From assembly GCF_000009705.1 (NCBI RefSeq), contig NC_003272.1:3150001-3182000 (forward strand): a stretch of DNA of 32,000 nucleotides, read 5' to 3'. Under the pieces are notes generated by a model. The model did not search any database, had not been told where the DNA came from, and saw nothing but the letters and a program-made list of their open reading frames with translations. The translations under genes were made by a program, and so were the position numbers. The stretch comes from Nostoc sp. PCC 7120 = FACHB-418. Lineage in GTDB: Bacteria; Cyanobacteriota; Cyanobacteriia; Cyanobacteriales; Nostocaceae. Each line of letters opens with the position of its first letter. Positions within the stretch are counted from its first letter, which is position 1. This document shows, one piece after another, positions 1-24,957 of the stretch.

Positions 1-3000
1 AATGTCAGAAATGGACACATCAATATGTTGACAAGTCAAATTCGGGTATTCTTGGGGAATTACCTTCACTAAACCCAGAATCGTAGCATCATCAGGGTTA
101 AGATTTTCATTTCCCAGAACATTCTGTACTTGCTGAGTCAGTACATAAATTGACAGGGATGAGGAAGATAAAGCCTGAGTGAGCCAAAGTAAACTGTAAA
201 AACCCAGATTTTGCTGTTGTTGAAAATTTGTGCGCTCTTGGAGAGTCCAGGAATGTATAATTACATCAGGTAACTTATCATCTGTTTGTAATTGTAACCA
301 CAGTGTTTTGTAGTCTTCAGGGTTATGAGGTGCGATCGCATAATTATCACCTTCTTGAGTAAATCCCTCTCCCGGTTTGACAGTTACTACTTCCTGTCCC
401 GTTTCCTGAAGATGTTGTACTAATCTTTCCCCAGCATTCCCAGCATGACAAAATACTAAATATCGCTGTTTATTTAACGGTGCAGCAGAACGCAACAGGG
501 GTTTTTGTCTCCAAGAGGGCAAATAAAACCAATTTGAGATTTGTTCCTGCTTCTGGAGCGTTTTAGAGGTATTAGAAGTAGTTTCTGGTAATGTATCCCT
601 TTCTACCCAATAGCGTTGACGTTCAAAGGGGTAAGTTGGGAGGGGTAATCTTCGGCGTTGCTGTTGGGTATAAAGTTCTGACCAGTTGATAGTCACACCC
701 CTGAGCCAAAGTTGTCCCAAGGTTTTGCAAATCAAAGCTACATCAGATTGGGTGTCTTGGGGATGTCGTCCAGATGATAAGGTGGGGGGTGCATCGGGAA
801 ACTGTCTGACGAAGGTACTTAAAGTTTGACCAAAACCAACCTCTACAAAAATCTGATTGGGTGTTTGTTGGAGTTCGGTAATTCCTTCAGCAAATAACAC
901 TGGTTGACGTAAATGGGTAGCCCAGTAATTAGGGTTTGTGGCTTGTTCTGGAGTTATCCAAGTTCCCGTAACGTTGGAAATGAAGGGAATTTGTGGCGGA
1001 TGGAGGGAGATATTTTGTAATATTTGCGTTAAGGGAGTAACAGCAGTTTCCATCAAGGGTGAATGGAAAGCATGGGAAGTATGTAAACGTCGATGAGTAA
1101 TATTTTGATGTGTGAGCAGTTTTTCTAGTAGAGTAATTGCGGCTTCTGTTCCCGATACGACGCATAACTCAGGTGCGTTATGGACAGCGATGACTAAATC
1201 ATCAGTCAAAAACGGTTGCAATTTCTCAGGCGCAAGGGAAACCGAAAGCATGACTCCCGATGGACATTGTTGCATCAATTTTCCGCGCTGTGCCACTATT
1301 GCCAAAGCATCAGCTAAGGTGAAAACACCCGCCAAAGTTGCAGCCACATATTCCCCAATGCTGTGACCAATCATAGCCTGTGGCTGAATACCATAGGATA
1401 ACCAGAGTTTCGCTAGGGCGTACTCTACGGCGAATAGAGCAGGTTGGGCGTAGGTGGTTTGGGTTAGTAATTCGTAATTCGTAATTCGTAATTCGTAATT
1501 GAGATTGGGGACTGGGGATTGGGGACTGGGTGAATTTTCGTTGTCCTGTTTAAATAGGATGGAAGGTAAATCACAGCCTAGATGTGGTTGTAATAATTCG
1601 CTGCAATGGTCAATTTCTTTGCGGAAAACTGGTTCGGTGTTGTAGAGTTCTTGTCCCATGTTGAGGTATTGGCTACCCTGTCCAGGGAACATAAAAACTA
1701 TGCTGGGTTCGGTGTTTTCTGGGGAATAACTCAACAGTTGGGAAGCATCAACTCCTGTGAGGATTTCAATTGCTTGGGCAGGGGTTTGACAAACTAAGCA
1801 ACGACGATGGTTAAATGCTCGTCTACCAATTTGGAGAGTGTAAGCTACATCTGCAAGGTTTAATTCTGGATGCTTTTGTAAATGTGTAGCAAGGTTGATT
1901 GTTGCTTGCTCAAGTGCTTTCTCACTTTTAGCTGATAAACATAATAGATGATAATTAATTTTGAATTTTGAATTTTGAATTTTGAATTGTGTTGGTGCTT
2001 CTTCTAAAATTGCATGAGCATTAGTTCCACCCATCCCAAAGGAACTAACTCCAGCCCTTCTTGGGTGTTGATGATTTATCCAAGGTGTCAACTGAGTATT
2101 AACAAAAAATGGACTATTAGCAAAATCAATTTGCGGATTCGCCGCCGTAAAATTTAAACTTGGAGGAATTTGTTTGTGTTTGAGAGCCAAAGCAGTTTTA
2201 ATTAAACCACTGATACCCGCAGCCGCATCTAAATGACCAATATTAGTTTTAACTGAACCAACAGCACAGAATTGTTTTTGATGAGTATGTGGTGAAAATG
2301 CTTTAGTTAAAGCTGCAATTTCAATAGGATCACCTAAAGCTGTTCCTGTTCCGTGAGTTTCAATATATTGAATTGTCTCTGGATTTATCTTAGCTTTTGT
2401 TAACGCAGTAGTGATAGCTTTTGCTTGTCCGGTAACACTGGGTGCAGTTAAACCTACTTTTTGCGAACCGTCATTATTTATTGCTGTTGCTTTGATAATT
2501 GCATAAATATGGTCGCCGTCTTGAATAGCATCCCGCAGTCTTTTCAAGACAACAATTCCCACACCATTACCGAATACTGTGCCTTTCGCGTTAACATCAA
2601 AAGCCCGACAATAACCATCTGGAGAAAGTACACCATCTTCTTGATAAAGATAACCTGCTTTTTCCCCTATACCGATAGACACACCACCAGCAAGTGCTAT
2701 ATCGCATTCTTTATTTAATAAACTTTGACAAGCAATATGTACACTGACCAAAGAAGTAGAACAACCAGTTTGAATACCACAACTCGCACCTGTCAAATTC
2801 AATTTATAGGAGACACGAGTAGGCATTAAACCCATAACATTGCTGATCACGACTTGAGTGCGATCGCTATTTTCTCGATAATTAGAATTACTCGCTAAAT
2901 TCACCAAATAACTATTCAGTGCAGCCCCACCATACACAGCAATATTACCCGAATACTGCTCTGAATCATAGCCAGCATTTTCTAAAGCTTCCCAAGCACA

Positions 3001-3384
3001 TTCTAAAAACAACCGATGCTGAGGATCGAGAATTTCCGCTTCTCTAGGAGAATAACCAAAAAAACCGGCATCAAACTCATCAATTCCCGCCAAACTAGCA
3101 TAAGCCCGGACATAATTTTGTTTTTCTAAATCCTCCGCCTTTACCCCATTTGCTAATAAATCTTCATTACTTAAAAACTTAATCGAGTTAATACCATTTT
3201 TCAGATTATCCCAAAACTCATCAACATTTTTAGCCCCCGGAAACCGCCCCGCCATCCCAACAATAGCAACTTCCTCAGACCTTTCTAATTCCACCGCTTC
3301 TAACTTAGTCCGAGCCTCCTTAAGCGCAGCCAAAATACGCTCAGATGCAGGGTGATTTTTAATATCATCAATGGAATAAGACAT
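1..3384 (-). CDS. Type I polyketide synthase, N-terminal part (docking helix-KS-AT-start of KR-like region); 3' end beyond left edge
   Basis: Absent from the ORF track because it has no in-window stop. Reverse-strand translation from ATG 3384-3382 gives MSYSIDDIKNHPASERILAALKEARTKLEAVE... and stays open to base 1. I checked the frame codon by codon over 1441-1560, 1951-1992 and 1-60. KS motifs: GIQTGCSTSLV (Cys codon 2761-2763), ETHGTGTALGDP, KTNIGHLDAAAG. AT motifs: GHSIGEY (Ser codon 1360-1362) and HAFHS (~1058-1082, malonyl-type by the HAFH rule). Post-AT linker YPFERQRYW. The last residues ...ILGLVKVIPQEYPNLTCQHIDV look like the start of a KR region. Confidence 0.85.
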   Translation of the reverse strand, partial: MSYSIDDIKNHPASERILAALKEARTKLEAVELERSEEVAIVGMAGRFPGAKNVDEFWDNLKNGINSIKFLSNEDLLANGVKAEDLEKQNYVRAYASLAGIDEFDAGFFGYSPREAEILDPQHRLFLECAWEALENAGYDSEQYSGNIAVYGGAALNSYLVNLASNSNYRENSDRTQVVISNVMGLMPTRVSYKLNLTGASCGIQTGCSTSLVSVHIACQSLLNKECDIALAGGVSIGIGEKAGYLYQEDGVLSPDGYCRAFDVNAKGTVFGNGVGIVVLKRLRDAIQDGDHIYAIIKATAINNDGSQKVGLTAPSVTGQAKAITTALTKAKINPETIQYIETHGTGTALGDPIEIAALTKAFSPHTHQKQFCAVGSVKTNIGHLDAAAGISGLIKTALALKHKQIPPSLNFTAANPQIDFANSPFFVNTQLTPWINHQHPRRAGVSSFGMGGTNAHAILEEAPTQFKIQNSKFKINYHLLCLSAKSEKALEQATINLATHLQKHPELNLADVAYTLQIGRRAFNHRRCLVCQTPAQAIEILTGVDASQLLSYSPENTEPSIVFMFPGQGSQYLNMGQELYNTEPVFRKEIDHCSELLQPHLGCDLPSILFKQDNENSPSPQSPVPNLNYELRITNYELLTQTTYAQPALFAVEYALAKLWLSYGIQPQAMIGHSIGEYVAATLAGVFTLADALAIVAQRGKLMQQCPSGVMLSVSLAPEKLQPFLTDDLVIAVHNAPELCVVSGTEAAITLLEKLLTHQNITHRRLHTSHAFHSPLMETAVTPLTQILQNISLHPPQIPFISNVTGTWITPEQATNPNYWATHLRQPVLFAEGITELQQTPNQIFVEVGFGQTLSTFVRQFPDAPPTLSSGRHPQDTQSDVALICKTLGQLWLRGVTINWSELYTQQQRRRLPLPTYPFERQRYWVERDTLPETTSNTSKTLQKQEQISNWFYLPSWRQKPLLRSAAPLNKQRYLVFCHAGNAGERLVQHLQETGQEVVTVKPGEGFTQEGDNYAIAPHNPEDYKTLWLQLQTDDKLPDVIIHSWTLQERTNFQQQQNLGFYSLLWLTQALSSSSLSIYVLTQQVQNVLGNENLNPDDATILGLVKVIPQEYPNLTCQHIDVSISDI
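1467..1501. repeat. (GTAATTC)x5 heptamer array (last unit degenerate) inside the PKS AT domain
   Basis: Counted directly. Read in frame as NYELRITNYELL. Confidence 0.95.
1504..1531. repeat. STRR1-type array (ATTGGGG/ACTGGGG)x4 inside the PKS AT domain
   Basis: Counted directly. The coding strand is CCCCAGT/CCCCAAT, read as SPSPQSPVPN. Confidence 0.95.
1957..1991. repeat. (AATTTTG)x4 plus one degenerate unit in the KS-AT linker
   Basis: Counted directly. Read as QFKIQNSKFKIN. Confidence 0.95.
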
Positions 3385-3435: not shown

Positions 3436-3466
3436 CTCACTCTGCGCTTCTGCGTCTCTGCGTGAC
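3436..3466. repeat. CTCACGCAGAGG-family repeat (CTCTGCG orientation) forming the 3' end of the 191-aa ORF
   Basis: ctcactctgcgcttctgcgtctctgcgtgac. Confidence 0.85.
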
Positions 3467-4012
3467 ACATTTCTCCAAATTCTCAGGATTAATAAACTGA
3501 CAACGACTACGAGCAAAAGCATCTAAAACATCAACAGCACAACTACGCTCAAATCTTAAACTACCAGCCTCCTCCCCACCGAACTTTTGACAAACTGCTC
3601 GATGAGACTTAGCCAGATAAAGATAAGCATCAACAAACCCTTGATGTTCAGCTTTTAATTCTGTTGGTAAATTAGCAAAATGAGGTCGTAACTGTTTCCA
3701 AACTTTAATCAATACTGAATGTTCCCAAGACATCAACCCACTAAAATCATGAGATTTAACATGAGGAGGCATCATCGAAGGACGAATTTCAGCTTCATAT
3801 AATTCTGGGCTTAAGCTACCTGCTAATTCCATTGATGCACCAGAAGCTAACATTAATTTCGTAGCTGTTTTTAACTCTATTTGTGCTTGTTGTAAATTTC
3901 CGTCTATTAATTCTAAATTAAAGCGATGCAAACAAATAATTAATCCTTGAATATTGATAAAAAATGACCAATGGAAACCTTGCCAAATTTCCTGGGGTGT
4001 GAGTTTTAACAT
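3437..4012 (-). CDS. Hypothetical protein, 191 aa, His-rich and apparently helical; no family recognised
   Basis: ORF in the track, same strand as the cluster. It lies 52 nt upstream of the PKS start. Its ATG overlaps the stop of the preceding ORF (ATGTTAA, 4012-4006). The last ~10 codons (VTQRRRSAE*) are encoded by a CTCTGCG-type repeat at 3436-3466. Confidence 0.6.
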   Translation of the reverse strand: MLKLTPQEIWQGFHWSFFINIQGLIICLHRFNLELIDGNLQQAQIELKTATKLMLASGASMELAGSLSPELYEAEIRPSMMPPHVKSHDFSGLMSWEHSVLIKVWKQLRPHFANLPTELKAEHQGFVDAYLYLAKSHRAVCQKFGGEEAGSLRFERSCAVDVLDAFARSRCQFINPENLEKCVTQRRRSAE

Positions 4013-4455
4013 GACTCTAAGTTAAGTTGAAATACTCTGTCTAAAAGATAGACATAATTTTTAAAGCCTTCTCTTTGTAGTTCAATTTGAGTAATATCTA
4101 GATTTAAATTGTCTTGTTGGAGATACAAGAAGGTTTGACAAGCTGATAATAAACCTTTGACTAAGCACAATTCTGGTTCATTGCTTTGGACGTGTTGGAC
4201 ATGAAAGTAGGTGTCAAAGTCTTCTATTTCCCAGTATTTTAAGGTTGTTTGTGTAGAAATTGTTTCTAGGGGGAATACATCATATATTTCTAGTTCAGCT
4301 ATTGCAGTTTCAATGTTGTTGATGGCTTGTTGAATATCGGGTTTATTTAATGCTGTTAATAGTTCTGTGAGGATTTTTTTGAGTTTAATTTGGGTGGGTG
4401 GGGTTAGCTGTTGTTGGATGGGGAGTTCTGCGGGGTTTAAGAGTTCTAGGAGCAT
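4006..4455 (-). CDS. Hypothetical protein, 149 aa; no family recognised
   Basis: ORF in the track, co-directional, with a 7-nt overlap with the 191-aa ORF that suggests translational coupling. No catalytic motif recognised. Confidence 0.55.
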   Translation of the reverse strand: MLLELLNPAELPIQQQLTPPTQIKLKKILTELLTALNKPDIQQAINNIETAIAELEIYDVFPLETISTQTTLKYWEIEDFDTYFHVQHVQSNEPELCLVKGLLSACQTFLYLQQDNLNLDITQIELQREGFKNYVYLLDRVFQLNLESC

Positions 4456-4464
4456 ATTTTTTTA

Positions 4465-4506
4465 ACGCAAAGGGGCGCAGAGGGAAACGCGGAGGGGCGC
4501 GGAGAG
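4465..4506. repeat. CGCAGAGG-family repeat, intergenic
   Basis: acgcaaaggggcgcagagggaaacgcggaggggcgcggagag. Confidence 0.85.
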
Positions 4507-4510
4507 AAGA

Positions 4511-5998
4511 TTAGTTGTTAATAAATCCTTCGTTGCGTAGTTCGTTAATACTGTCGATAAAGGCTTTTTTGATGAGATTAATATCTTCTTCGGTGTGTGC
4601 TGTGGAAAGAAAACCGCCTTTGTCTCCTTGGCGCAGATGTATTCCTTTTGTGATGAGGTGATAAGAGAGTAAGTTTATCGCCATTGGGGGAACTGCGCTT
4701 TGGGAGGCTGCTACAGCAAAAAATGAGCCAAAGCTAGTAAACTTGATAGCTATACCCTGCTGTGTCATGTGAGTATTTAAATCGTTGACGAGTTGCGTAG
4801 TCCGTTGATTTAATTCGTTGTGTAATTCAATACCTGAAATTTTGAGGTGTTGTAAGGTGGCACGGGCGGCGGCGAGGGCGAGGGGATGTTTGCAAAATGT
4901 TCCAGCAAAGAAGGTTGTGGGAACTTGAGGCGTGGAATCATCTCCAAATTGCCATTGTCCACCGTCTATGTAGTTCATGTAACTAGCTTTCCCAGCAATT
5001 ACCGAAAGCGGTAGACCTCCCCCAACGATTTTGCTATAGGTTGCAATGTCGGCTTTTACACCAAAGTGTGCTTGCGCTCCTCCTGGGTGGATGCGAAAAC
5101 CTGTCACCATTTCGTCAAAAATCAGGACTATTCCTAGTTCTTGGGTGATTTGTCGTAGTTGTTGCAGAAATTCACGCGGTTGCAGTTCGGGACAACGGCT
5201 TTGTACTGGTTCTACTAAGACGGCGGCGAGTTCTCGGCGATGTTTGCGAATCAGCTTTAAAGAATGTTCGTTACCGTACTCTAAAATCAGTACGTCAGCA
5301 GCTGCACTGTTGGGAATACCTGGGGCTGCGGGTACGGCTTTGGGATTGAGGTTGGCTGTGAAAAGGGCTTGAATTGGTTGGGCTAGTCTACCGATAAAAC
5401 TACCAGATTTAGCGGCGATGATGCGACGGGCGGCTTTTTTAGCATATTCTGTCATTGTTGCCCGGACAAGTACAGAATCAAAGTGTCCGTGGTAGGAGTT
5501 GGTGAAAATCGCTATTTTTGGGCGTTTTGTGGCGGCGCGGGCGATACGCACGGCTGTCATGACGGCTTCTGTACCTGTGTTACTAAAGGTGACTCTTTCT
5601 GCACCTGTTAGTTCGCTGATGAGTTGGGCTACTTCGCCAGCTAGTGTATTTTGGACACCGATGTGCATTCCCTGTTGTAGTTGTTCGCTGATGGCTGTTT
5701 GAATGAATGGGGGGTTATGTCCAAATAAGTTAATTCCTAGTCCCATGAGGATGTCTATGTATTCGTTTCCATCGACATCCCACAGGCGAGAACCGTTGGA
5801 TTTTTCGATAGCAATTGGGTAGCAGAGTTCTTTGGTTTCTGGTGCAAAGTTGAAACCTATTGAGGTTTTATCGGCTAGTATTTGGCGATTTTGTTGGGCT
5901 ATTTTTTTGGAGGTTTGGGTGCGTTGGTTGTAGTTTTGGATGAAGTTTTTTAGGTGGTTTTGTTGGGGGGTTGTTTGGGGTTTTTGTGTTGTTGTCAT
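4511..5998 (-). CDS. PLP-dependent class-III aminotransferase of the glutamate-1-semialdehyde aminomutase-like 'AMT' type found in PKS/NRPS lines (stand-alone here)
   Basis: The N-terminal stretch FIQNYNQRTQTSKKIAQQNRQILADK...KELCYPIAIEKSNGSRLWDVDGNEYIDILMGLGINLFGH is typical of AMT domains (MycA/McyE type, from memory). Other motifs: SNTGTEAVMTAVRIARA, IFDEMVTGFR. Putative PLP-lysine in ATYSKIVGGGLP (Lys codon 5030-5032). Confidence 0.88.
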   Translation of the reverse strand: MTTTQKPQTTPQQNHLKNFIQNYNQRTQTSKKIAQQNRQILADKTSIGFNFAPETKELCYPIAIEKSNGSRLWDVDGNEYIDILMGLGINLFGHNPPFIQTAISEQLQQGMHIGVQNTLAGEVAQLISELTGAERVTFSNTGTEAVMTAVRIARAATKRPKIAIFTNSYHGHFDSVLVRATMTEYAKKAARRIIAAKSGSFIGRLAQPIQALFTANLNPKAVPAAPGIPNSAAADVLILEYGNEHSLKLIRKHRRELAAVLVEPVQSRCPELQPREFLQQLRQITQELGIVLIFDEMVTGFRIHPGGAQAHFGVKADIATYSKIVGGGLPLSVIAGKASYMNYIDGGQWQFGDDSTPQVPTTFFAGTFCKHPLALAAARATLQHLKISGIELHNELNQRTTQLVNDLNTHMTQQGIAIKFTSFGSFFAVAASQSAVPPMAINLLSYHLITKGIHLRQGDKGGFLSTAHTEEDINLIKKAFIDSINELRNEGFINN

Positions 5999-6071: not shown

Positions 6072-6950
6072 TTAGATGTTTACGGGTTTACGACAAAGGA
6101 AGTAGGCTGAGTGTCTATCGTCTATTGTGGGGTTTCCTTCTAGGGTGAGGATTTGAATGTCGGTGAATCCTGTTTGTTGTAGGGCTATTTTGATTTCTTC
6201 GGGGATATGTCCTCTAACAAAATATTTTTCGTCCATTCTTTGCCAGTTTTTTTCTTTGGCTTGAAATACGGATAATAGTTTTATACGGAGTTTATATAAA
6301 AGGTTGTGGTTTAATATTGGGGATAATAAACGCCAAATTATTTTTATTATGCGGGCGGATGATGGTTTGGTTTTTTTCTGAAACATGGTGACTTGAAAGT
6401 AGCCTTGACGTTCTTCTGGGTTGTAATTTGGTGTCACCATCCAAGCGTATTTATTTTCTATTTCTCCTTCGGCAATTTTTCCTCTCCACCAGCGTTGCAT
6501 TTGTTGATGATGGTTGATGTCAAAGAGAAACCAGCCGTTTTCTTTGAGGGCGGAATATACTCTTTGAAAGACTTGCTGGAGTTCGGGAATTGTCATGATG
6601 TGGTTGAGGGCTGCGCTTGTGGAAAATGCTGCGTCGAAGGATAGGGGAAGTTCAAAGTAACGCGCATCTGCTAGGAGAAATTGTCCGTTTGGGGCGTTTT
6701 TACGGGCGTAATTTAACATTTCTGAGGAGTTATCTACGCCTGTTATTTGATATCCTCGATTGATTAAAGTTTGGACTAGTTGTCCTGTTCCACAGCATAA
6801 GTCTAAGATTTTGGCGTTTGGTTTTATTTGGGGGAGAAGGATTTTTTCTAGGGGTTTTAGTTGGTTTTGGCTATATTCTGGCCCCATTGTTTGGTTGTAT
6901 AGCCATGCCCAGGTGTCGTATTCTGTATGGTTTGGGTTGTTGGAAATCAT
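6072..6950 (-). CDS. Class I SAM-dependent methyltransferase
   Basis: Motif I ILDLCCGTGQL (~6783-6811), acidic post-I GVDNSSEML, motif II-like FDAAFSTSAALNH. 292 aa, co-directional, 27 nt after the preceding stop. Confidence 0.85.
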   Translation of the reverse strand: MISNNPNHTEYDTWAWLYNQTMGPEYSQNQLKPLEKILLPQIKPNAKILDLCCGTGQLVQTLINRGYQITGVDNSSEMLNYARKNAPNGQFLLADARYFELPLSFDAAFSTSAALNHIMTIPELQQVFQRVYSALKENGWFLFDINHHQQMQRWWRGKIAEGEIENKYAWMVTPNYNPEERQGYFQVTMFQKKTKPSSARIIKIIWRLLSPILNHNLLYKLRIKLLSVFQAKEKNWQRMDEKYFVRGHIPEEIKIALQQTGFTDIQILTLEGNPTIDDRHSAYFLCRKPVNI

Positions 6951-6958
6951 GTTTTTAA

Positions 6959-7000
6959 ACGCAGAGGTACGCGGAGGTTAACGCAAAGGTGCGCGGAGGT
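6959..7000. repeat. CGCAGAGG-family repeat spanning the intergenic gap and the last codons of the hydroxylase-R gene
   Basis: acgcagaggtacgcggaggttaacgcaaaggtgcgcggaggt. Encodes ...NLRAPLR*. Confidence 0.85.
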
Positions 7001-8100
7001 TTGAGGGAGGTTTTTGGATGAGGTTTTTTTGGATGAGGTGGGAGAGGTAGGTTTGAATTAGGGTTTCGTTGATGGTTGGTGGGGGGATGAGTTGGTTTAG
7101 TATGGTTTGGGTTTTTCTGTTGTCAATTTGTAGTTTGTTGTTGGTTGGTGTTTGGTTGGTGGTTCTTTGTCTGGGTAATAGGGGAATTAGAGGATATAAG
7201 ATGTGTTCTGGGGAGTTTTGGGCTATTTGTAAGATTTGGTTGCGCCATTGATGATATGAGGTTTTCTTAATTTCAATGCCGACTTTTTTTAGTTGTTCAA
7301 ATACTATGTCTGAGGTTGTTGCTTGTGGTTGGATGATATGGAATATTTGTTGGTTGGATGTTATTTTTGATAGTTCAACAATGGCGCGACAAACATAATC
7401 TACTGGTAAGATTTCTAAGGGCATTGGTGTATCTGGAATGCTGCCTAATTGGACGTAACCTAACAGCAGTTTATAGAGGAAATCGTTTTGATTAAATACT
7501 CCTGTTTGACTGTCTCCTGATACTGCTCCTAAGCGATAAATTTTTACGGGTATTCCGCGTTTTACTGCTGTTATCGCTAGTTTTTCTGCTGCCCATTTAC
7601 TCTGAGGATAGCCACCAATAGGTATGCCATAATCATCTAAGTTAGCATCTTCTGTCACCTGGAAATTACTATTTTTATTACCTGCCAAAATACTGATTGA
7701 GGAAATTAAATGTACTGGTTTTAGTTTGCTCTGGCTGGCTAGGCGGAAAATTTCTTGAGTACCTAAAACATTCGCTGGTTTTAAGCGGCTGTAAGGTTCT
7801 GTGTGATTTACTCGCGCTCCGTTATGATAAATTACGTCTATCTGGTTGGCTAGGTTTTGAAATTTTAGTTCAGATAGTCCTAGTTTTGGTTGGGCTAGGT
7901 CGCCTACTATGGGAATAATTCTATCTGAGTATGAGCTATCCCAAATTTGGTAATCTTGTAAGGTTTTGATGATTCTTTGGGTGGCTATTTCAAGATTATT
8001 GGCTTTAATTAAACAATAAACTGATGCTGTGGTTTTGTTGAGTAGTTCTCTTAGGAGAAATGCGCCGATAAATCCGGTTGCACCTGTTAATAATAATGAG
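6978..8100 (-). other. Thioester reductase (SDR-type R) domain
   Basis: TGATGFIG nucleotide-binding motif, YCLIKA, YxxxK as YPQSK. Borders are approximate. Confidence 0.8.
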
Positions 8101-10037
8101 GAATATGAGGAAGGTAAGGCAGATGGAGAAGGAGGAATAATTGTCGAGTCAAGGGTTGTTTCTTGTTCCCAATCTATTGCTAGTTTTGGTTGTTGACAAC
8201 TCTGTAAAAATTCGATGATTTCAGGTTTGCGTTCTTGTAATTGTGCTTTTAAGTGCGGGGTTAAAACTCCTTTGGGCGCATTACATCTTAGTTTGGGGAT
8301 GCTCTCAGTATCTTCTAACCAAATCCGAATATCTAAATTTTGTAATTCTGAAAGTAATGATTGAATTGAAGTTACCCCTCCCCAACCCTCCCCTTGTAAA
8401 AGGGAGGGAGTTTTAATATTCGCTAGGATAAGTGATGGTTGAGTGTTGGGTGTAAGGAAGATTTCTTCACAACCATAGAGGCGTTTACTGAGTATTTCTT
8501 GGCTATGACAATATTCAATGAGTTTGTTAGATTCAATTATAGCTAGGGATTCTGGTGTATATATAATTGAGGTGATGAAGGTCAGCCACGGTTCTTGACC
8601 CATTGCATAAACGTAAACTTGCTGAGGTTTCAGTTGTTGCACTAGGGCGATCGCTCTGCTACTATTAGAACCGTCTAACCGTCGCGTTTGGGCAATTTTT
8701 CGCGGTACTTGATTGGTTAATAATGCTCCATACGCCCATGTATAAGGCGCACCTTCGCATTCCATCCCAATAAACAAGACATCTATATCCCCAAAGATTT
8801 GCTGTAGGTGGCTGTACAATTGGGGTGCAATATTATTAGAATCGGCTGCACATAAGATTGAACGTCCTTTAAGATTTACTAAATACGCAGCTTTCGCACC
8901 TATATTTAAATCTCCATGTTCTCCTAAAAATGGCAAGGCGGTAATATATCCGTCTGTCAGATTAATTACTTCTAACTCGTCAATTTCCCGGATATCTGCA
9001 AAGCCAATTTGTTGCAGCATCAATTTTAAGGAAGGGTCTATTAATATTCCCTTATTGCTTTTAGGAACTACCACTGTTTTAACTTTGTGGCGTAACTGCA
9101 ACAGCGTTTCTAACATTACATGGTCTTGGTGATTGTGGGTCAGAATAACGTAGTCAATCACACGGGGTAAATTCTCGTAGGTGTAGCGATTCATCCCCGA
9201 ATCATGGGGATAGCTAATGATGGGATCACAGAGAATATTGACTGATTCGGTTTGAATTAAAACACAAGCATGACCAAAGTAGCGAACTCTTACAGCTTCC
9301 TCTGTGTAGTCGGGTTCTAGGTTGGGGGGTGTGGTGGTAAAAAATTCGGCAAATAGTGATTCTTGATGAGGTTGAATTTGCAGGGTGTCTCGAATATCGT
9401 TGTAGGGTTGGGGAGTGTGACGCATTTGTGAGAGTTGGTCAAGACGGCGATCGCTAAATGCTATTTTTAGATGTATACTCTCGTCATCTGGTAAGCGCGG
9501 TGTACTCAAAACAAAAGCGCGTTTATCCCCGTCACCCAAGTACAAATTTACCGATTGATTGGCAGGATTATAATATGGACTGCGATATAGTAGCCCTTCA
9601 ATAAAGCGAATTGAGGGGTGATTGTTACTATCCTGTACCAATTCTACGTAACCCCGTAGCGGTTGAGGAATTTGACTATACAAAGGTTCTAGAGAATAAC
9701 CCTGGGGGTGTGCAGCTAAGAGTTTTTCTAAATCTTGAATTGCTTGCGCTAGTTCTAGCATTTGCGCTTGCTGCTTTTGCGTTGTCTCCAGTAATACCCG
9801 AATATCCTCAACTTGACTGGGATTATGGTTGATGAAGGGGCTACCAGTCATCGCTGGATTTTTTAAAGCATCGTGGTGTACCTGCGGCGCAGCAATGAAT
9901 GATTGCATAATTGGTACATGAGAATTAGCAATGTACATTGCGGCTGTGGCGGGAGAAATTAAATATGACCAGGCGTACCACTGATTGAATAGTGGTTCAA
10001 TGATGACATTGGGTTTGAGATACATTGGTTGTGTCAT
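6978..10037 (-). CDS. Tri-partite enzyme: CmlA-like di-iron metallo-beta-lactamase-fold hydroxylase + internal TubC-type docking domain + thioester reductase (R) domain; no carrier domain
   Basis: YFGHACVL (~9262-9285). HxHxDH as LTHNHQDHV (~9118-9145). Docking-like LDIRIWLEDTESIPKLRCNAPKGVLTPHLKAQLQERKPEIIEFLQ (~8202-8370). R domain LLLTGATGFIGAFLLREL (~8060-8095) and GGYPQSKWAAEKL (~7590-7620). No GGxS carrier motif. The start lies 2 nt after the NRPS4 stop. Confidence 0.85.
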   Translation of the reverse strand: MTQPMYLKPNVIIEPLFNQWYAWSYLISPATAAMYIANSHVPIMQSFIAAPQVHHDALKNPAMTGSPFINHNPSQVEDIRVLLETTQKQQAQMLELAQAIQDLEKLLAAHPQGYSLEPLYSQIPQPLRGYVELVQDSNNHPSIRFIEGLLYRSPYYNPANQSVNLYLGDGDKRAFVLSTPRLPDDESIHLKIAFSDRRLDQLSQMRHTPQPYNDIRDTLQIQPHQESLFAEFFTTTPPNLEPDYTEEAVRVRYFGHACVLIQTESVNILCDPIISYPHDSGMNRYTYENLPRVIDYVILTHNHQDHVMLETLLQLRHKVKTVVVPKSNKGILIDPSLKLMLQQIGFADIREIDELEVINLTDGYITALPFLGEHGDLNIGAKAAYLVNLKGRSILCAADSNNIAPQLYSHLQQIFGDIDVLFIGMECEGAPYTWAYGALLTNQVPRKIAQTRRLDGSNSSRAIALVQQLKPQQVYVYAMGQEPWLTFITSIIYTPESLAIIESNKLIEYCHSQEILSKRLYGCEEIFLTPNTQPSLILANIKTPSLLQGEGWGGVTSIQSLLSELQNLDIRIWLEDTESIPKLRCNAPKGVLTPHLKAQLQERKPEIIEFLQSCQQPKLAIDWEQETTLDSTIIPPSPSALPSSYSSLLLTGATGFIGAFLLRELLNKTTASVYCLIKANNLEIATQRIIKTLQDYQIWDSSYSDRIIPIVGDLAQPKLGLSELKFQNLANQIDVIYHNGARVNHTEPYSRLKPANVLGTQEIFRLASQSKLKPVHLISSISILAGNKNSNFQVTEDANLDDYGIPIGGYPQSKWAAEKLAITAVKRGIPVKIYRLGAVSGDSQTGVFNQNDFLYKLLLGYVQLGSIPDTPMPLEILPVDYVCRAIVELSKITSNQQIFHIIQPQATTSDIVFEQLKKVGIEIKKTSYHQWRNQILQIAQNSPEHILYPLIPLLPRQRTTNQTPTNNKLQIDNRKTQTILNQLIPPPTINETLIQTYLSHLIQKNLIQKPPSNLRAPLR
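8202..8370 (-). other. Internal TubC_N-type (beta-hairpin) docking domain
   Basis: Aligns by eye to the NRPS4 N-terminus: L-D-[IV]-[RK]-[IL]-W-[LV]-E-D...LRC..P..VLT..L...L..RK.EII.FL. Confidence 0.75.
8371..8412. repeat. C-rich imperfect palindromic element (hairpin-A type) forming the linker between the MBL and docking domains
   Basis: gttacccctccccaaccctccccttgtaaaagggagggagtt, read as TPSLLQGEGWGGVT. Related to the PPSLVGKG(V/A)(R/G)GLG-coding elements at 27189 and 29031. Confidence 0.8.
8450..10037 (-). other. CmlA-like hydroxylase half (N-terminal ~245-aa domain plus MBL fold) of the 1019-aa protein
   Basis: HxHxDH, YFGHAC, GEHGD and GMECEG segments. The layout (extra N-terminal domain followed by an MBL fold, inside an NRPS cluster) matches my memory of CmlA-family beta-hydroxylases. 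Borders are approximate. Confidence 0.6.
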
Positions 10038-10039
10038 GG

Positions 10040-13000
10040 TTAAATTTCAAACTCCTCTCGTTCATCATCGCTGGTATCAGATATTACTGGAATTTCTGCC
10101 TTTAGTTGTCGTTGTAAAATTCGTTCCGCTAAACCTGCTACTGTTGGTGCATCAAACAAATCCATGACGGTAAGTTCGACTTGAAATACCTGCAAAGCTT
10201 GGGCGATTAATTGAGTGGCGATGAGAGAATGTCCCCCCAATTCAAAAAAGTCATCCTGAATACTCACCTTTTCTAACTTGAGTATCTGGGCGTATATATC
10301 GGCTAATTGCGCTTCGATATCTGTACGGGGGGCGATAAATTCAGCGTTTGCTAGGACTTGTTCGGGTGCGGGGAGTGCGTGGGTGTCTACTTTACCGTTG
10401 GGTGTCAGGGGTAAATCAGTCAGTAGCACAAACGCCGACGGAACAAGATATTCGGGTAACTTCTCTCGCATGAAAGCTCGGAGGGATTGGGGATTGGGGA
10501 TTGGGGACTGGGGATTGGGGATTGGGGATTGGGGAAATTTTTGCTCCCCTCCTTCCTCATTGGGAATGACGTAGGCGACTAAACGCTTCTCCCCTGGTTG
10601 GTCTTCGCGGACAATTACTACTCCAGCACGCACCCCAGGATGTTGACATAATAAGGTTTCCACTTCTTGCGGTTCAATGCGAAAACCGCGAATTTTGACT
10701 TGGTTATCAACCCTTCCTAAAAGTCTGATGCGACCATCAGGTAAGTAATAAGCTAAGTCACCGGTTTTATAAAGTCTGGAATCACTGTTGACTGTTGACT
10801 GTTGACTGTTGACTAAGGACACTTCTTTTCCCAGTCCCCAGTCCCCAGTCCCCAGTCCCCAGTCCCTAATAAATCTTTCGGCTGTTAAATCTGGGCGATT
10901 TAGATAACCTCGCGCTAAACCTATTCCACCAATGTAGAGTTCACCAATTACGCCGATGGGGACGGGTTGTAAATAATTATCTAATATATATAGTTGTTTG
11001 TTGGCACTGGGGCGAATGGTGGGAACTAGGGGATGACCGTTTCCACAAAGTACCATGCTGGCGTTGACTGTAACTTCCGTTGGGCCGTAAGCGTTGATAA
11101 AACGTCTTCCTTGTGACCATTTGGCGATTAATTCAGGTGATGGTGCTTCACCTCCTACTAGTACCATTCGCAAATGTGGTAAGTCTGCTGAGGGGAGTAG
11201 GGATAGGGCTGAGGGGGTGATAGTTATATGAGTAACTGCGTTGTCCCGTAGCAGTTTTAGTAAGGTTTCTCCTGGTAGTAAAGATTCTGATTTGGCTAGA
11301 CAAAGTTTTGCACCGCTTCCCAAAGCCATGATGATTTCGGGGATAGAAGCATCAAAGCTGAGTGAGAAAAATTGCAGTACACAATCACCGGGATGAACAT
11401 CACAAACTTGTATTTTATGTTGTGTGAGGTTGGTTAAGCCGATGTGGGGGATTAAAACCCCTTTTGGTTTACCAGTAGAACCGGAGGTGTAAATTAAATA
11501 AGCTAAATTTTCTGGTTTAACTTCACTTTCTGGGTTTTCTATACTGCATTGAGAAATTGTTTCCCAGTCTGTATCTAGGTAAATTATTTCGTAGCTTGAG
11601 GAAGTGGCAACTTTCAGGCTTGTTTCTGTTAGTAAAATTGGTACTTGGGAATCAGCCAACATATACCCCAGGCGTTCTGGGGGATAATTGGGGTCGAGGG
11701 GGAGATATGCACCACCAGCTTTGAGGATACCAAGTAAAGCGATGATCATTAATGGGGAACGCTCTACACATAATCCCACAATTACCTCTGGTTTCACCCC
11801 TTTTTTTTTGAGGTAATGAGCAACTTGATTACTTTTTTGATTGAGTTCTGTGTAAGTAAGAGACTGATTTTCAAAGATAATCGCTACTTCATCTGGTGTT
11901 TTTTCTACCTGCGCTGCAAATAAGTCTTGAAAGGTTAAATGGCTAGGACATTCTACTTGGGTTTGATTCCAATCAATGAGAATAGTTTGTTTTTCTTTAT
12001 CTGTCAGTAATGGTAATTCGGAAATCCGTTTTTGTGGATTCTCAACAATCGCCGTCAATACCGTTTGAAAATGTCCTACCATTCGGTTAATTGTCTCTGG
12101 TGCAAACAAATCTCGGTTATATTCAAATGCACCTACAAAACCCTCTGATGTTTCGTACATATCCAAACTTAAATCTAGTTTGGCACTTGCTTCTGTCCGA
12201 TTTAAAGGTCTGAGAGTTAACCCTGGTAATTCTAATTTTTCTGTAGGGGCATTTTCTAACCGAAATTTTACCTGAAATAGTGGATTAAAACTTAAATCTC
12301 TTTCCGGTTGCAGGACTTCTACTAATTTTTCAAAAGGTATATCTTGATGGTCGTAAGCTTGCCAAGTTGTATTTATTAGCTGCTGTAATAATTCCTGAAA
12401 ACTGGGATTATCTGCTAAATTTGTCCGCAATACTAATGTGTTGACAAAAAAGCCAATTAAAGCTTCTATTTCTCGACGATGGCGATTAGCTACGGGAGTC
12501 CCAACGAGGATATCTGTTTGTCCGGTATAGCGATGCAGGAGAATTTTATAAGCCGTGAGGAGGGTAACAAAAGGCGTGACACCTGCATTTTTTGCGAGTT
12601 TGATAATACCTTGACTCAATTGAGGAGAGAGAGAAAAAGATTCAATTGCACCCCGAAATGTCTGTACTCTTCCACGGGGGTAGTCGGTGGGTAATTGTAA
12701 TACTGGGAGGATACCGCCTAATTGTTGTCGCCAATAGTCTAGTTGAGTTTCTAAAACTTCTCCTTGTAACCATTGTCTTTGCCAAATTGCAAAATCAACA
12801 TACTGAATTGCTAACTCTGGTAAAGGGGATGGTTGATTACCACTAAAGGCAGTATAAAGGGTTGCTAATTCTTTAACTAAAATTTCCATTGACCAACCAT
12901 CAGAAACGATGTGGTGCATGGTAAATAAAACTACATTTTCATCTTTAGCTAGTTGGAGAATTTTCACCCGCAATAATACATCTGTGGCTAAATCAAAAGG

Positions 13001-13534
13001 TGTTTGTGCTTCTTTTAAAGCCAGGTGACGGACTTCTTCATCTTGTTCGAGGAGATTAAAGGCTTGTAAATCTATCACAGCCAGGGGAAGGGTGACACTC
13101 GGCTGAATATCTAAAACAGGATTTCCATCTACAGTTTTGAAGTTTGTGCGTAGTAGCTCATGACGTTGGATAATGGTATTTAGCGATCGCTCCAATAATC
13201 CAACATCCAAAATCCCCGTCAATCTGACTGCTGTCGGTAAATTATAAGTATAACTATCGGGTTGTAATTGTTCTAAAAACCACAATCTTTGTTGAGCAAA
13301 AGACAGAGGTAGGTTGCCGTTGCGTGGTGCTGGGGTAATTGCTTGTGTATAATTTGTAGATGACTTAGCTTGACGTAAAAAAGTGATGATTTCAGATTTG
13401 CGCGATCGCAATTCTCCAGTCAGTTCATCCGTCAGCACATCTTCAGGAATACTACACCGTAAATTAGCATCTTCTACCCACAATTTAACATCAAGGCTGT
13501 AAAGGTGTGCCAGAAATTTTTCAATAGTTTTCAT
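10040..13534 (-). CDS. NRPS subunit 4: N-terminal TubC-type docking domain-C(LCL)-A-T
   Basis: Docking: LYSLDVKLWVEDANLRCSIPEDVLTDELTGELRSRKSEIITFLRQ. C: LPLSFAQQRLWF, MHHIVSDGWS (Met206 codon 12917-12919). A: LAYLIYTSGSTGKPKG (~11465-11515), YKTGD, NGKVD. T: FFELGGHSL (~10215-10250). Manual specificity code DAPTLGAVNK, which I cannot assign. C-terminal tail ...SDTSDDEREEFEI. Confidence 0.95.
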   Translation of the reverse strand: MKTIEKFLAHLYSLDVKLWVEDANLRCSIPEDVLTDELTGELRSRKSEIITFLRQAKSSTNYTQAITPAPRNGNLPLSFAQQRLWFLEQLQPDSYTYNLPTAVRLTGILDVGLLERSLNTIIQRHELLRTNFKTVDGNPVLDIQPSVTLPLAVIDLQAFNLLEQDEEVRHLALKEAQTPFDLATDVLLRVKILQLAKDENVVLFTMHHIVSDGWSMEILVKELATLYTAFSGNQPSPLPELAIQYVDFAIWQRQWLQGEVLETQLDYWRQQLGGILPVLQLPTDYPRGRVQTFRGAIESFSLSPQLSQGIIKLAKNAGVTPFVTLLTAYKILLHRYTGQTDILVGTPVANRHRREIEALIGFFVNTLVLRTNLADNPSFQELLQQLINTTWQAYDHQDIPFEKLVEVLQPERDLSFNPLFQVKFRLENAPTEKLELPGLTLRPLNRTEASAKLDLSLDMYETSEGFVGAFEYNRDLFAPETINRMVGHFQTVLTAIVENPQKRISELPLLTDKEKQTILIDWNQTQVECPSHLTFQDLFAAQVEKTPDEVAIIFENQSLTYTELNQKSNQVAHYLKKKGVKPEVIVGLCVERSPLMIIALLGILKAGGAYLPLDPNYPPERLGYMLADSQVPILLTETSLKVATSSSYEIIYLDTDWETISQCSIENPESEVKPENLAYLIYTSGSTGKPKGVLIPHIGLTNLTQHKIQVCDVHPGDCVLQFFSLSFDASIPEIIMALGSGAKLCLAKSESLLPGETLLKLLRDNAVTHITITPSALSLLPSADLPHLRMVLVGGEAPSPELIAKWSQGRRFINAYGPTEVTVNASMVLCGNGHPLVPTIRPSANKQLYILDNYLQPVPIGVIGELYIGGIGLARGYLNRPDLTAERFIRDWGLGTGDWGLGKEVSLVNSQQSTVNSDSRLYKTGDLAYYLPDGRIRLLGRVDNQVKIRGFRIEPQEVETLLCQHPGVRAGVVIVREDQPGEKRLVAYVIPNEEGGEQKFPQSPIPNPQSPIPNPQSLRAFMREKLPEYLVPSAFVLLTDLPLTPNGKVDTHALPAPEQVLANAEFIAPRTDIEAQLADIYAQILKLEKVSIQDDFFELGGHSLIATQLIAQALQVFQVELTVMDLFDAPTVAGLAERILQRQLKAEIPVISDTSDDEREEFEI
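10483..10534. repeat. STRR1-variant array (ATTGGGG x6, ACTGGGG x1) in the A8-A9 loop of the NRPS4 A domain
   Basis: Counted directly. Read as PQSPIPNPQSPIPNPQS. Confidence 0.95.
10784..10814. repeat. STRR3 array (ACTGTTG)x4 in the A6-A7 loop of NRPS4
   Basis: Coding strand CAACAGT, read as NSQQSTVNS. Confidence 0.95.
10830..10866. repeat. STRR1 array (CCCAGTC)x5 in the A6-A7 loop of NRPS4
   Basis: Coding strand GGGGACT, read as DWGLGTGDWGLG. Confidence 0.95.
13370..13534 (-). other. N-terminal TubC_N-type docking domain of NRPS4
   Basis: MKTIEKFLAHLYSLDVKLWVEDANLRCSIPEDVLTDELTGELRSRKSEIITFLRQ precedes the C domain. Confidence 0.75.
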
Positions 13535-16500
13535 AGCGATATCTCCTTACGACCTGATTGTTCAGACGGGGTAGTTTGCATTTGTTGAATACTCTGTTGC
13601 AGAATCATAATTCGTTCTGCAAGTCCGGCAATTGTGGGTTTTTCAAATACACTATGTAAAGGTAAATCCAATTGAAAAGCTTCTCTGAGTCTTGATGTCA
13701 CCCGAATTGCTGAAAGGGAATTTCCCCCCAATTCAAAGAAGTTTTCATCTACTCCCATGCGTTCTAGTCGCAACACATCGGCCAAAATGTTGGCAATAAT
13801 TGTTTCTGTAGAATTACGCGGTGCAATATAAGATTGATTTGCATGGCGTACAGTTTCAGGTGTCGGTAAAGCTTGACGATTGATTTTACCGTTAGGCAAT
13901 AAAGGTAATTCTGACAACATCACAAATACAGAAGGCAACATATATTCTGGTAATTGAGATGCCAACAATTTTTCTAATTCGCTGGTGAAATCTGGCGACT
14001 CAAGGCTAGTTGATTTCTGCACCACATAAGCCCCTAAACGCTGATTATCAGCTTGTTTTGAGTCTAAAATCACCACCGCTTGCTGTACATCAGGATGTTG
14101 ATTAATTACCGCTTCAATTTCCCCTAATTCAATCCTCAACCCCCGAATTTTTACCTGATTATCCAATCGCCCCAAGTATTCTAAATTACCATCAGGCAAA
14201 TAGCGAGCAAGGTCGCCTGTTTTATAGAGAGTGCTGAGTGCTGAGTGCTGAGTGCTGAGTTGGGAGTTGAGAGTTGGGTTATTTTTTTCCCCAGTCCCCA
14301 GTCCCCAGTCCCCAGTCCCCAGTCCCCCAACAAACCTTTCCGTCGTTAAATCTGGACGTTTCCAATAACCTCTGGCGACTCCTACACCACCGATGTAAAT
14401 TTCACCTGGAATACCTAAAGGTACTGGTTGTAAATAATCATTTAAAAGGTAAATTTGGGTGTTAGTAATTGGACGACCGATAGGCACTGTATGTAAATTA
14501 TCTGTAGGCTGACATTGCCAATATGTGACATCAATTGCGGCTTCTGTCGGCCCATATAAATTGTGTAATTCTGCATCCAAATGCTGGAAGAAACGATTTT
14601 GAATTTCTATTGATAAAGCTTCACCGCTACAAATTACCCGCTTCAAGCTGTGACAACGTTCATTTAAATTTGGTGCTTCTAAAAACACTCCTAACATCGT
14701 CGGCACAAAGTGTAATGTCGTGATCTTGTGCTGTGCAATAATTTCTAATAAATAATTTGGATCTTGATGTCCTCCTGGTTTAGACATCACCAAACGACCA
14801 CCATTTAGTAATGTCCAGAAAAATTCCCACACTGAAACATCAAAACTAAAGGGAGTTTTTTGTAAAACAACTTCTCCTCTTTCTAAACCATACTGTTGCT
14901 GCATCCAATACAATCGATTACTCACACCGCGATGGGTGTTAATTACTCCCTTGGGTGTGCCTGTAGAACCAGAGGTATAGATAATATAAATTGCATCTTC
15001 ATGATTAACATTTGTGATGGGATTATTGTCAGGTTTCTGGGTGATTTCCTGCCAATCTGTATCTAAGCATAAGCACAAGGTTTTATTCAATACTTTGCTG
15101 GAGGCTTGGGAAGAGGTAAACCCTAGCAATTTTTCTAATAAACTTTCCTGAGTTAATACTACTGGGACTTGAGTTTCATTAATAATATATGTCAACCTAG
15201 ATGCAGGATAAGCAGGGTCAAGAGGAACATAACAACCTCCAGCTTTGAGGATACCTAAAATCCCAATGACCATTTCTAAAGAACGTTCAATATAAATCCC
15301 AACTGGTGTTTCTGGTTGTACTCCCCAGGTTTGCAAATAATGAGCTAATTGATTAGCACGTTGATTTAATTCTCTATAGGTAAGTTGTTGTTCCTCAAAG
15401 ACCACAGCAACATCATCGGGTGTTCTTTCTACCTGGATGTCAAATTGCTGATGAATACATTCTAGGGGATAATATGCTTCTGTTTGATTCCATTTGTGGA
15501 TGGTTTCATACTCTTGCTGAGTTAATAAAGGTAGGTTTCCTATTGTTTGCCCTGGTTGACTCATTCCTAATAACAAATTACAGAAATGCTCTAATAATTG
15601 AGTGATGGCATTATCTGTAAATCTGTTGCGGTCATATTTTACTTTTAATGACAATTGATTCCCTACAGAAACCAACATGGTTAAGGGAAAACTTGTCCAT
15701 TCTAAAGATTGAATATCAATAATACGTAAATCTTGGTTTTGGGAAATTCCCGATGTATCAACGGGATAATTTTCAAATACTAAAATACTGTCAAATAATG
15801 AAGTTCCTGGTGTAAGTTCGCTCCATTCTTGAATTTCTAAGAGTGATGTATATTCATATTCTAGAGCTTCTGCTTGTTGTGCTTGTAATTTTTGCAACCA
15901 CTCAACTAAATCATCTGTGGGTGATACCTGAACCCGCACCGGCAAAGTATTGATAAATAATCCCACCATTGACTCTACACCAGCGAGGGTTGCGGGTCGT
16001 CCTGATGAGGTTGCACCAAAGACTACATCGGTGGTGTTGCAATAGCGGCTTAATAATAAGGCAAAAGCACCCTGTAAGAGAGTATTCAGGGTTAATTGTT
16101 GCTCTTTTGCCCATTGTTGCAACCCAGTTGTTTGATTCGGGGTGAGACTGCGGGTTTGTTCTTGGGGTGTGAGGTTTTTGTTTTCTCTTTGGGCAAATCG
16201 TTGTATGACAGTGGGTGTAGTAAATCCTGCAAGTTGTTTTTGCCAGAATGTTTTAGCGGCAATTTTATCTTGTTGTTGTAACCAAGCTATGTAGTCACCG
16301 TAGGGGCGGGAATTAGGATAATAAGATGGGGAATTATAATAATTTTGAAATACTTCTTTAATTACTAATGCTGATGACCAACCATCGAGAATTAAATGAT
16401 GTTGTGTCCAGATAAGAATATATTTAGTTGCTGATAATTGAATTAGGGTTAAACGTAATAATGGAGGTTGTTTGATGTCGAAGGAGAAGGTGCGATCGCT

Positions 16501-16877: not shown

Positions 16878-16952
16878 CTCACGCAGAGGCGCAGAGACAC
16901 AGAGAGTAAGAGAACTCTGCGTACCTTTGCGTTACCTCCGCGTACCTCCGCG
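16878..16952. repeat. CGCAGAGG-family units in inverted arrangement (intergenic NRPS2/NRPS3)
   Basis: ctcacgcagaggcgcagaga...ctctgcgtacctttgcgttacctccgcgtacctccgcg. The left and right halves are imperfect reverse complements. Confidence 0.85.
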
Positions 16953-16969
16953 TTTCAAAAAAACTCCTC

Positions 16970-24852: not shown

Positions 24853-24957
24853 CTCACGCAGAGGCGCAGAGGCGCAAAGAGGAGAAAAGAGAGATAGTTT
24901 GATTAGAAAATTATCTCCTCTCCTCCTATTCTTCGCGTCTTTGCGTCTTTGCGTGAG
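24853..24957. repeat. CTCACGCAGAGG-family units in inverted arrangement spanning the NRPS1 stop and the NRPS1/NRPS2 intergenic gap
   Basis: ctcacgcagaggcgcagaggcgcaaagaggag ... ctcctctcctcctattcttcgcgtctttgcgtctttgcgtgag. The right arm encodes ...LSHAKTQRREE*. Confidence 0.85.

Follow-up and report, generated by a model that had tools for sequence, protein, structure and literature searches.

An internal docking domain joins a putative hydroxylase to a thioester reductase in a Dmaq-type siderophore cassette of Nostoc sp. PCC 7120

Why would one protein of a nonribosomal peptide synthetase (NRPS) assembly line join a CmlA-like di-iron hydroxylase to a thioester reductase (R), hold a docking domain (DD) between them, and lack the peptidyl carrier protein (PCP) domain on which either enzyme should act? 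The question is raised by a 1019-aa open reading frame (ORF) at 6978..10037 of a 32,000-nucleotide stretch of the Nostoc sp. PCC 7120 genome (NC_003272.1, positions 3,150,001 to 3,182,000; hereafter the window, to which coordinates refer). Our results suggest that this protein is probably the detached end-piece of the last module in an NRPS-polyketide synthase (PKS) siderophore line of the Dmaq type, named for the chromophore of anachelin and fabrubactin. Specifically, it would dock to the last carrier, beta-hydroxylate the 3,4-dihydroxyphenylalanine (DOPA) bound there, and release the chain reductively. Its parts all come from known families, and cassettes of this kind are known as well; the novelty lies in how the parts are arranged and in the product that this implies, and the fusion does not challenge current concepts. 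An earlier reading of the same DNA from its letters alone (the original prediction) had recognized the three parts and overlooked the pathway context, a Dmaq siderophore cassette.

The three-part ORF proved real, with one detail supplied: the original prediction left its strand unstated, and it lies on the minus strand, as do the window genes and domains given below (it starts with ATG, while the plus-strand translation is full of stops). Profile searches supported the hydroxylase, docking and reductase assignments alike, with CmlA_N and a metallo-beta-lactamase (MBL) fold, TubC_N, and NAD_binding_4 recognized by Pfam, TIGR01746 by NCBIfam, and concordant sequence matches in the PDB. The motifs named earlier are all present (YFGHACV at residue 253, HNHQDH at 301-306, TGATGFIG at 651-658, and YPQSK at 810-814), and the protein is carrier-less as described, given that the GGxS motif is absent from its whole length and PP-binding Pfam matches number zero. 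Thioesterase families likewise gave zero matches among the window ORFs scanned, in keeping with the earlier claim that the window lacks such a domain. An AlphaFold2 model built on 63 homologues (mean pLDDT 86) shows three folded units connected by low-confidence linkers at residues 541-555 and 614-620, which are also unconserved (mean identity 0.12 and 0.25 across 114 aligned sequences, the set used for residue conservation throughout).

In a large protein collection, at least 120 clusters at the 90% identity level, 45-92% identical, have the four Pfam families in common. They are mostly cyanobacterial (among them Nodularia spumigena, Nostoc sp. UHCC 0870, Gloeocapsa PCC 7428, Limnoraphis, and Crocosphaera), with one Burkholderiales metagenome-assembled genome (MAG) also represented, and their sole annotation is "thioester reductase domain-containing protein". 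Because so many clusters share the architecture, the Nostoc protein can, on sequence grounds, be taken as a hydroxylase-docking-reductase end-piece and not an artefact. That two genes were joined by a lost stop through a sequencing or assembly error, or that the gene is decaying and its hydroxylase part inactive, is scarcely credible: the clusters are independent, come from isolates and metagenomes, and hold an intact fusion, and such decay is contradicted by the conservation of catalytic residues in all three domains. Three of the loci surveyed below (L034, L038, and L057) do present the hydroxylase and DD-R as separate overlapping ORFs, as an artefactual joining would have it, but the overlaps are out of frame, lie on MAG contigs of about 2-4x coverage, and are probably frameshift errors. 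The original prediction had also asked whether the architecture might be common and already characterized. It is common, both in these clusters and in 30 of the 80 loci surveyed, but literature searches, beyond whose reach the primary fabrubactin study lay, yielded no description or characterization of the fusion.

The N-terminal half is assigned to the CmlA-type family. CmlA_N (PF18456) spans aa 6-237 (9327..10022; E 2e-95, full-length match 1-232/232) and is followed by the di-iron MBL-fold catalytic domain at aa 250-530 (8448..9290), where Lactamase_B_2/_3 match aa 250-425 (E 1e-10) around HNHQDH. The best solved relative is PDB 8a90, a 531-aa "Non-heme diiron monooxygenase" that aligns over aa 4-527 (E 1e-141) and is a stand-alone protein, whereas its relative in the window is fused to a docking domain and a reductase; CmlA itself (4jo0) matches the whole hydroxylase part (E 1.6e-110). 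Further, H301, H303, D305, H306, E373, D399, and E426 align with H307, H309, D311, H312, E379, D405, and E432 of CmlA (4jo0 chain numbering), positions that we take to be the di-iron ligands of the CmlA structure, and all seven are at least 97% conserved. The protein thus combines CmlA_N with an MBL fold bearing HxHxDH and three carboxylates, as CmlA-type enzymes do, and the context of a docking domain and an adjacent DOPA module suggests that it beta-hydroxylates a carrier-tethered amino acid. The oxidative decarboxylase chemistry of LynB7/BarH-type di-iron enzymes was considered and rejected, as that family is amidohydrolase/PtmU3-like and not CmlA/MBL. Stand-alone CmlA-like proteins without docking and reductase parts were also encountered, 59% (Nostoc) and 48% (Ralstonia megaplasmids H4-H40) identical to the hydroxylase half; the Nostoc protein (H2, L084:11992-13593) is encoded on a Nostoc flagelliforme plasmid, where it is flanked by NRPS genes in a hybrid cluster of unrelated type.

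The C-terminal part is a thioester reductase domain (aa 648-1006; 7020..8096), which scores 339.8 bits against TIGR01746 (cut-off 213.35) and matches NAD_binding_4 at aa 650-886 (E 3.5e-71). Its TGATGFIG NAD(P)H motif and the catalytic pair Y810/K814 are invariant among the aligned homologues. The MxcG model also matches over the R region (E 5e-75), far below its equivalog cut-off. Terminal reductases of this kind follow the last PCP covalently; here that PCP resides on a separate protein, NRPS4.

What pathway does the protein serve? NRPS4 (10040..13534; Pfam) lies immediately upstream and is a terminal module of docking domain, condensation (C), adenylation (A) and PCP domains, of DOPA type, with the A-domain specificity code DAPTLGAVNK (code positions were mapped by motif anchors based on GrsA). 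Downstream of the fusion come a class I S-adenosylmethionine methyltransferase (MT; 6072..6950; Pfam, conserved synteny), which may catalyze N,N-dimethylation, and a class III aminotransferase (AmT; 4511..5998; Pfam, NCBIfam, synteny), GSA-aminomutase/GntE-like, which may convert an aldehyde to an amine. Two small overlapping ORFs follow and resemble the FbnL/FbnM pair (L and M). The first (4006..4455, 149 aa) aligns with Agrobacterium and cyanobacterial homologues, specifically with the first of two Agrobacterium "siderophore biosynthesis protein" genes. The second (3437..4012, 191 aa) is homologous to SfmD, a haem peroxygenase, over the C-terminal half of the latter (6vdp, E 5e-8); it shares 50-53% identity with the "siderophore biosynthesis proteins" of Agrobacterium, and its homologues carry PF27188 SfmD_perox. 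FbnL and FbnM together constitute a two-protein haem peroxidase, which turns tyrosine into L-DOPA, and they initiate Dmaq, the quinoline chelator of the anachelins and fabrubactins (PMC12971057). Homologues of both, which an antiSMASH rule uses to recognize Dmaq cassettes (PMC12971057), are present here, the reference being Agrobacterium tumefaciens/vitis plasmid homologues rather than A. fabrum C58, and they are accompanied by the DOPA-type terminal module, reductase, aminotransferase, and methyltransferase of such a cassette. A type I PKS gene start with a ketosynthase motif (1..3384) continues past the window edge; in survey loci L004-L007 this position holds a large ORF containing PCP/acyl carrier protein domains. 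The cyanochelin cluster, considered for its oxazole/thiazole and hydroxylated residues, was ruled out as a counterpart, with cyanochelin B having other Asp beta-hydroxylase classes and another architecture.

To place this cassette among its relatives, species-representative genomes were scanned with an alignment of FbnM-like proteins, which gave the 80 loci, sorted by BLAST of window domains against locus ORFs; those not assigned above or below lie on contigs too short for sorting. The 30 loci of fused form (28 cyanobacterial, 2 Methyloversatilis) run dd-C-A-PCP / hydroxylase-DD-R / MT / AmT / L / M, and a further fused cassette occurs on a Gloeocapsa plasmid. Fourteen loci are of cis form, dd-C-A-PCP-R / MT / AmT / L / M, and have no MBL gene. 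Of these, ten come from cyanobacteria (Anabaena cylindrica and Acaryochloris marina among them) and four from alpha-proteobacteria, with the form verified by Pfam for Agrobacterium and Acaryochloris. Fused cassettes thus outnumber cis ones by about 3:1 in the cyanobacterial genomes sampled. In two loci, the cassette is otherwise identical and a standalone DD-R lacks the hydroxylase (L066:5418-6863 in [Phormidium] sp. LEGE 05292 and L072:5444-6925 in a Planctomycetaceae MAG), possibly an intermediate between the cis and fused forms. The terminal A-domain code was identical in 49 of the 49 loci where the domain is present, comprising 32 fused modules (the window included), 16 cis modules (including Agrobacterium and Anabaena cylindrica), and one upstream of a standalone DD-R. 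Given this identity, the last module of the window should load the same substrate as the fabrubactin and anachelin modules, namely L-DOPA (PMC12971057).

The cis loci supply the closest known systems. The terminal Dmaq modules of anachelin (Anabaena cylindrica) and fabrubactin (Agrobacterium fabrum) have a like cassette order, the same code, and siderophore uptake genes nearby; their type of cassette holds MT, AmT, L, and M homologues 40-63% identical to those of the window, and the reductase is orthologous, at 53% identity to the cis reductase of the A. cylindrica anachelin-type locus. The difference is that their reductase follows the PCP covalently, without a CmlA-like domain, whereas in the window a docking tail closes the PCP protein, and the reductase is supplied in trans, behind a hydroxylase and a docking domain. 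In A. cylindrica, the genes that come after the cassette encode an MFS exporter, a sucrase/ferredoxin-like protein, a binding protein, and a TonB-dependent receptor, a layout that agrees with the published description of the anachelin cluster; both chemically known Dmaq producers therefore use the hydroxylase-free cis form. Related cassettes adjoin TonB-dependent receptors, ExbBD/TonB, and periplasmic binding proteins, and three diverse fused proteins (from Burkholderiales, Limnoraphis, and a metagenome) sit in a matching cassette near TonB/ExbBD and TonB-dependent receptor genes. In evolutionary terms, the fused form looks like an ordinary C-A-PCP-R module with a hydroxylase and docking domain placed between PCP and R. 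Fused and cis forms interleave in a neighbour-joining tree of reductase domains (unbootstrapped and midpoint-rooted), which suggests, short of a firm conclusion, more than one transition between them. Dmaq-type cassettes also reach beyond the cyanobacteria and alpha-proteobacteria. Loci L078, L081, and L086 (Methyloversatilis and a Burkholderiales MAG) carry the fused hydroxylase-DD-R, and their downstream order C-A-PCP, PKS, NRPS, shared with Agrobacterium, suggests horizontal cassette transfer; L071 and L072 belong to Pedosphaera and Planctomycetaceae MAGs, the parts detected in L071 being limited to L, M, and downstream NRPS/PKS ORFs.

To which carrier, then, would the fusion protein dock? 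Its internal docking domain (aa 556-614; 8196..8372; code LRCNAPKG) is of the TubC beta-hairpin type: TubC_N (PF18563) matches aa 558-612 (E 1.9e-17), PDB matches include 8aqq and 2jug, and the segment is modelled as alpha-beta-beta-alpha-alpha (helix 558-567, strands 571-575 and 582-586, helices 594-602 and 604-614), with core residues L583, C585, A587, P588, and K589 at least 97% conserved. Docking domains of this type have been catalogued N-terminal to thioester reductases, halogenases, and other enzymes (PMC9113145). Docking domain-reductase pairs are known, and the unusual feature is the tailoring enzyme ahead of the docking domain: those described occupy the extreme N-terminus, whereas this one follows a 550-aa hydroxylase, an internal location kept in all homologues. 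One fused protein (P0082, L053:2436-6134) carries two internal docking domains in tandem between its hydroxylase and reductase parts, each with the code LRCNAPKG.

NRPS4 ends ...DDEREEFEI-TAA, with the fusion ATG 2 nt further on, as had been claimed, and the tail DDEREEFEI (10043..10069) is the proposed short linear motif (SLiM) for the internal docking domain, a matching charged tail on its putative partner. NRPS4 also begins with a docking domain (aa 4-55; 13370..13525; TubC_N, E 3e-19; code LRCSIPED), for which the C-terminal tail GRKEISL of NRPS3 (13534..13554) would be the partner motif. The two docking domains are homologous, but the residue-for-residue alignment described in the original prediction is too strict, with agreement at 24 of 52 aligned positions and a 4-residue hairpin-loop insertion. 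The pairing of the internal domain with the NRPS4 tail, which the original prediction had inferred, gains support from charge covariation over about 50 interfaces. In every fused locus with an intact upstream gene end, the PCP protein ends (D/E)REE(I/F/M/V)(E/A/D)(I/L/F)-COOH, and the internal docking code of fused loci is LRCNAP(K/R)G; at the preceding junction, the terminal module's N-terminal docking domain reads LRC(S/N)xP(E/D)x and its upstream partner tail ...G(R/Y)(K/R/Q)EI(E/S)L. Specifically, in 35 pairs tail position -5 is acidic and the residue next to the conserved docking AP, on its C-terminal side, is basic, while in 14 the polarity is reversed, with zero mismatches; the tail residue is uncharged in four cases, one a truncated ORF. 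The pairing appears real because some loci uncouple the code from the internal position: in cis loci L033 and L037, QREEIEL tails stand upstream of an N-terminal docking domain with the "internal" code LRCNAPKG, and in L066 the standalone DD-R (APKG) follows an ...EEREEFEI tail while the same line has an APEE docking domain after ...GRKEIEL. In the recognition mode established for docking domains of this class, the five terminal residues of the tail join beta2 as an extra strand, and two polarity-reversible salt bridges read the tail (PMC6195595, PMC9113145); the observed charge swap fits this mode. The most likely partner of the internal docking domain is, then, the tail of NRPS4.

Taken together, these observations suggest the following route. 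The two small SfmD-like proteins would convert tyrosine to L-DOPA, judging by homology, and the NRPS4 A domain, with its shared code, would load DOPA onto its own PCP. The internal docking domain would bind the acidic tail ...EREEFEI, as the covariation indicates, and thereby keep both flanking catalytic domains, by way of flexible linkers, at one carrier. The CmlA-type domain may then beta-hydroxylate the PCP-tethered DOPA, the C domain would condense after hydroxylation, and the reductase would free the peptidyl thioester as an aldehyde. On the model of the known Dmaq route, the aminotransferase would turn the aldehyde into an amine and the methyltransferase would dimethylate it, and oxidation and ring closure would complete a Dmaq-like unit that bears an additional oxygen at the benzylic position. 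The expected product, hypothetical at this stage, is a Dmaq-like catechol end group with a benzylic oxygen, such as 4-hydroxy-Dmaq or an open-chain form. The hydroxylase would seem to add a modification and not to be a requirement for Dmaq formation, since cis clusters make Dmaq without a hydroxylase domain.

Several points weigh against this route. The charge association (Fisher p 1.5e-12) comes from phylogenetically related loci, so that their independence is overstated, and the exact register of the tail/docking salt bridge is tentative, with the covarying docking residue lying 3 residues past strand beta2 in the model. The Dmaq of anachelin and fabrubactin has a benzylic CH2; we know of no hydroxylated Dmaq, which makes the predicted product hypothetical, and the literature searched reported no product for any fused-type strain that we found. 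The hydroxylase could act on another carrier-bound residue or perform chemistry other than beta-hydroxylation, and the primary fabrubactin study may already discuss a hydroxylase-bearing variant.

One form of this objection holds that the docking domain serves the reductase only, while the CmlA-like domain hydroxylates an upstream Ser, Ala, or Gly residue or performs the two-electron oxidation for chromophore ring closure. It draws on the standalone DD-R proteins of L066 and L072, which do without a hydroxylase in Dmaq cassettes, on the docking domain-reductase pairs already catalogued (PMC9113145), and on the absence of a benzylic hydroxyl from known Dmaq. We nonetheless consider it unlikely. 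The hydroxylase always adjoins the DOPA module in the loci examined, even where the neighbouring assembly-line genes differ, and among solved structures it comes closest to CmlA and a di-iron monooxygenase. Ring closure in particular requires an amine that is introduced only once the chain has been released; docking, by contrast, suggests a substrate still bound to the PCP, and the cis-type clusters make Dmaq with no hydroxylase domain at all.

The docked beta-hydroxylation of DOPA that we favour has a precedent in chloramphenicol biosynthesis, where CmlA hydroxylates an aromatic aminoacyl-S-PCP on CmlP (A-PCP-R) at the beta carbon first, and thioester reduction follows. The likeness lies in a CmlA_N plus MBL di-iron enzyme beside a thioester reductase, with an aromatic amino acid on the carrier. 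The two systems differ in that CmlA is free-standing and lacks a docking domain, its partner reductase residing within CmlP, whereas in the window hydroxylase and reductase form one protein and the carrier is separate; further, the proposed substrate in the window is a peptide-terminal DOPA, and the pathway goes on to an aminotransferase. The same parallel invites the suggestion that the reductase transfers four electrons and takes the chain to the alcohol, as the R domain of CmlP and some terminal R domains do, with the aminotransferase and methyltransferase acting elsewhere and the terminus being a beta-hydroxy amino-alcohol instead of a Dmaq-type amine. This seems distinctly improbable to us, given that in fused and cis forms alike the R-bearing gene is succeeded by MT-AmT-L-M and that the reductase shares 53% identity with the cis reductase of the anachelin-type locus. 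In addition, one 1342-aa protein (P0077, L088:2910-6938) is a hydroxylase-DD-R-MT, with the cassette methyltransferase fused straight to the C-terminus of the reductase, and the methyltransferase is therefore functionally tied to the reductase.

Two other systems frame the proposed aldehyde release by a docked enzyme. In enacyloxin biosynthesis, SLiM/beta-hairpin docking between Bamb_5917 and Bamb_5915 recruits a trans-acting release enzyme, and DD-reductase pairs were catalogued by Kosol 2019 (reviewed in PMC9113145). As proposed for the window, a short PCP C-terminal tail is read through charged residues by a docking domain linked flexibly to the chain-releasing enzyme. Myxochelin biosynthesis (MxcG/MxcL) offers reductive release to an aldehyde and then transamination in a catechol siderophore, with the MxcG reductase in cis and without a hydroxylase, docking domain, or methylation.

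The remainder of the assembly line in the window has the A-domain codes DLFNNALTYK, DLYNLSLIW-, DILQLGLIWK, DLFNNALTYK, and DVWHISLIDK, which we take to specify, in order, Ala, Cys (leading to thiazole), Gly, Ala, and Ser. The DLYNLSLIW- domain, the second A domain of NRPS1, carries an embedded nitroreductase-type oxidase domain, and with its Cys-like code it predicts a thiazole. The NRPS1 frame (24926-32000, minus) is open to the window end, and the GTG at 31729 is probably not its true start.

The window also holds two kinds of repeats. Perfect heptamer tandem repeats of 4-8 copies each (GGGATTG, CCCAGTC, TCCCCAG, TGGGGAC, TGTTGAC, and others) lie in NRPS/PKS coding regions at 10483-10535, 10784-10814, 10830-10866, 14229-14327, 19114-19152, 19802-19848, 22243-22283, 29716-29756, 1467-1530, and 1957-1988. 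They read in frame as peptide repeats in A-domain regions, for example PQSPIPNPQSPIPN and GLGTGDWGLGTG, and are similar to the short heptamers that heterocystous cyanobacteria carry in tandem. Another repeat family, with units of about 22 nt and 8 nt (AACGCAAAGGTACGCGGAGGTT; CGCAGAGG), occupies gene junctions at 6958-7001, 4464-4508, 16915-16954, 22998-23020, 24857-24876, 24930-24954, and 30497-30520, and the last codons and stop of the fusion ORF (...NLRAPLR*) come from one of its copies.

More broadly, we propose, tentatively and with slightly more doubt than confidence, that most cyanobacterial Dmaq-type clusters make an undescribed, benzylically oxygenated relative and not the anachelin chromophore, that one internal docking domain delivers hydroxylase and reductase to one carrier, and that its K/E-swapped code is orthogonal to that of the neighbouring inter-module junction. 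If so, a single docking domain between two catalytic domains would bring tailoring and release to the same carrier, and two orthogonal tail/docking codes would operate within one assembly line, which would be useful for splitting and rewiring NRPS modules. The "hydroxylate, then reduce" logic of chloramphenicol CmlA/CmlP would be linked to siderophore biosynthesis, and the commonest cyanobacterial form of the ancient Dmaq chelator pathway would yield a chemotype that has so far gone unseen.

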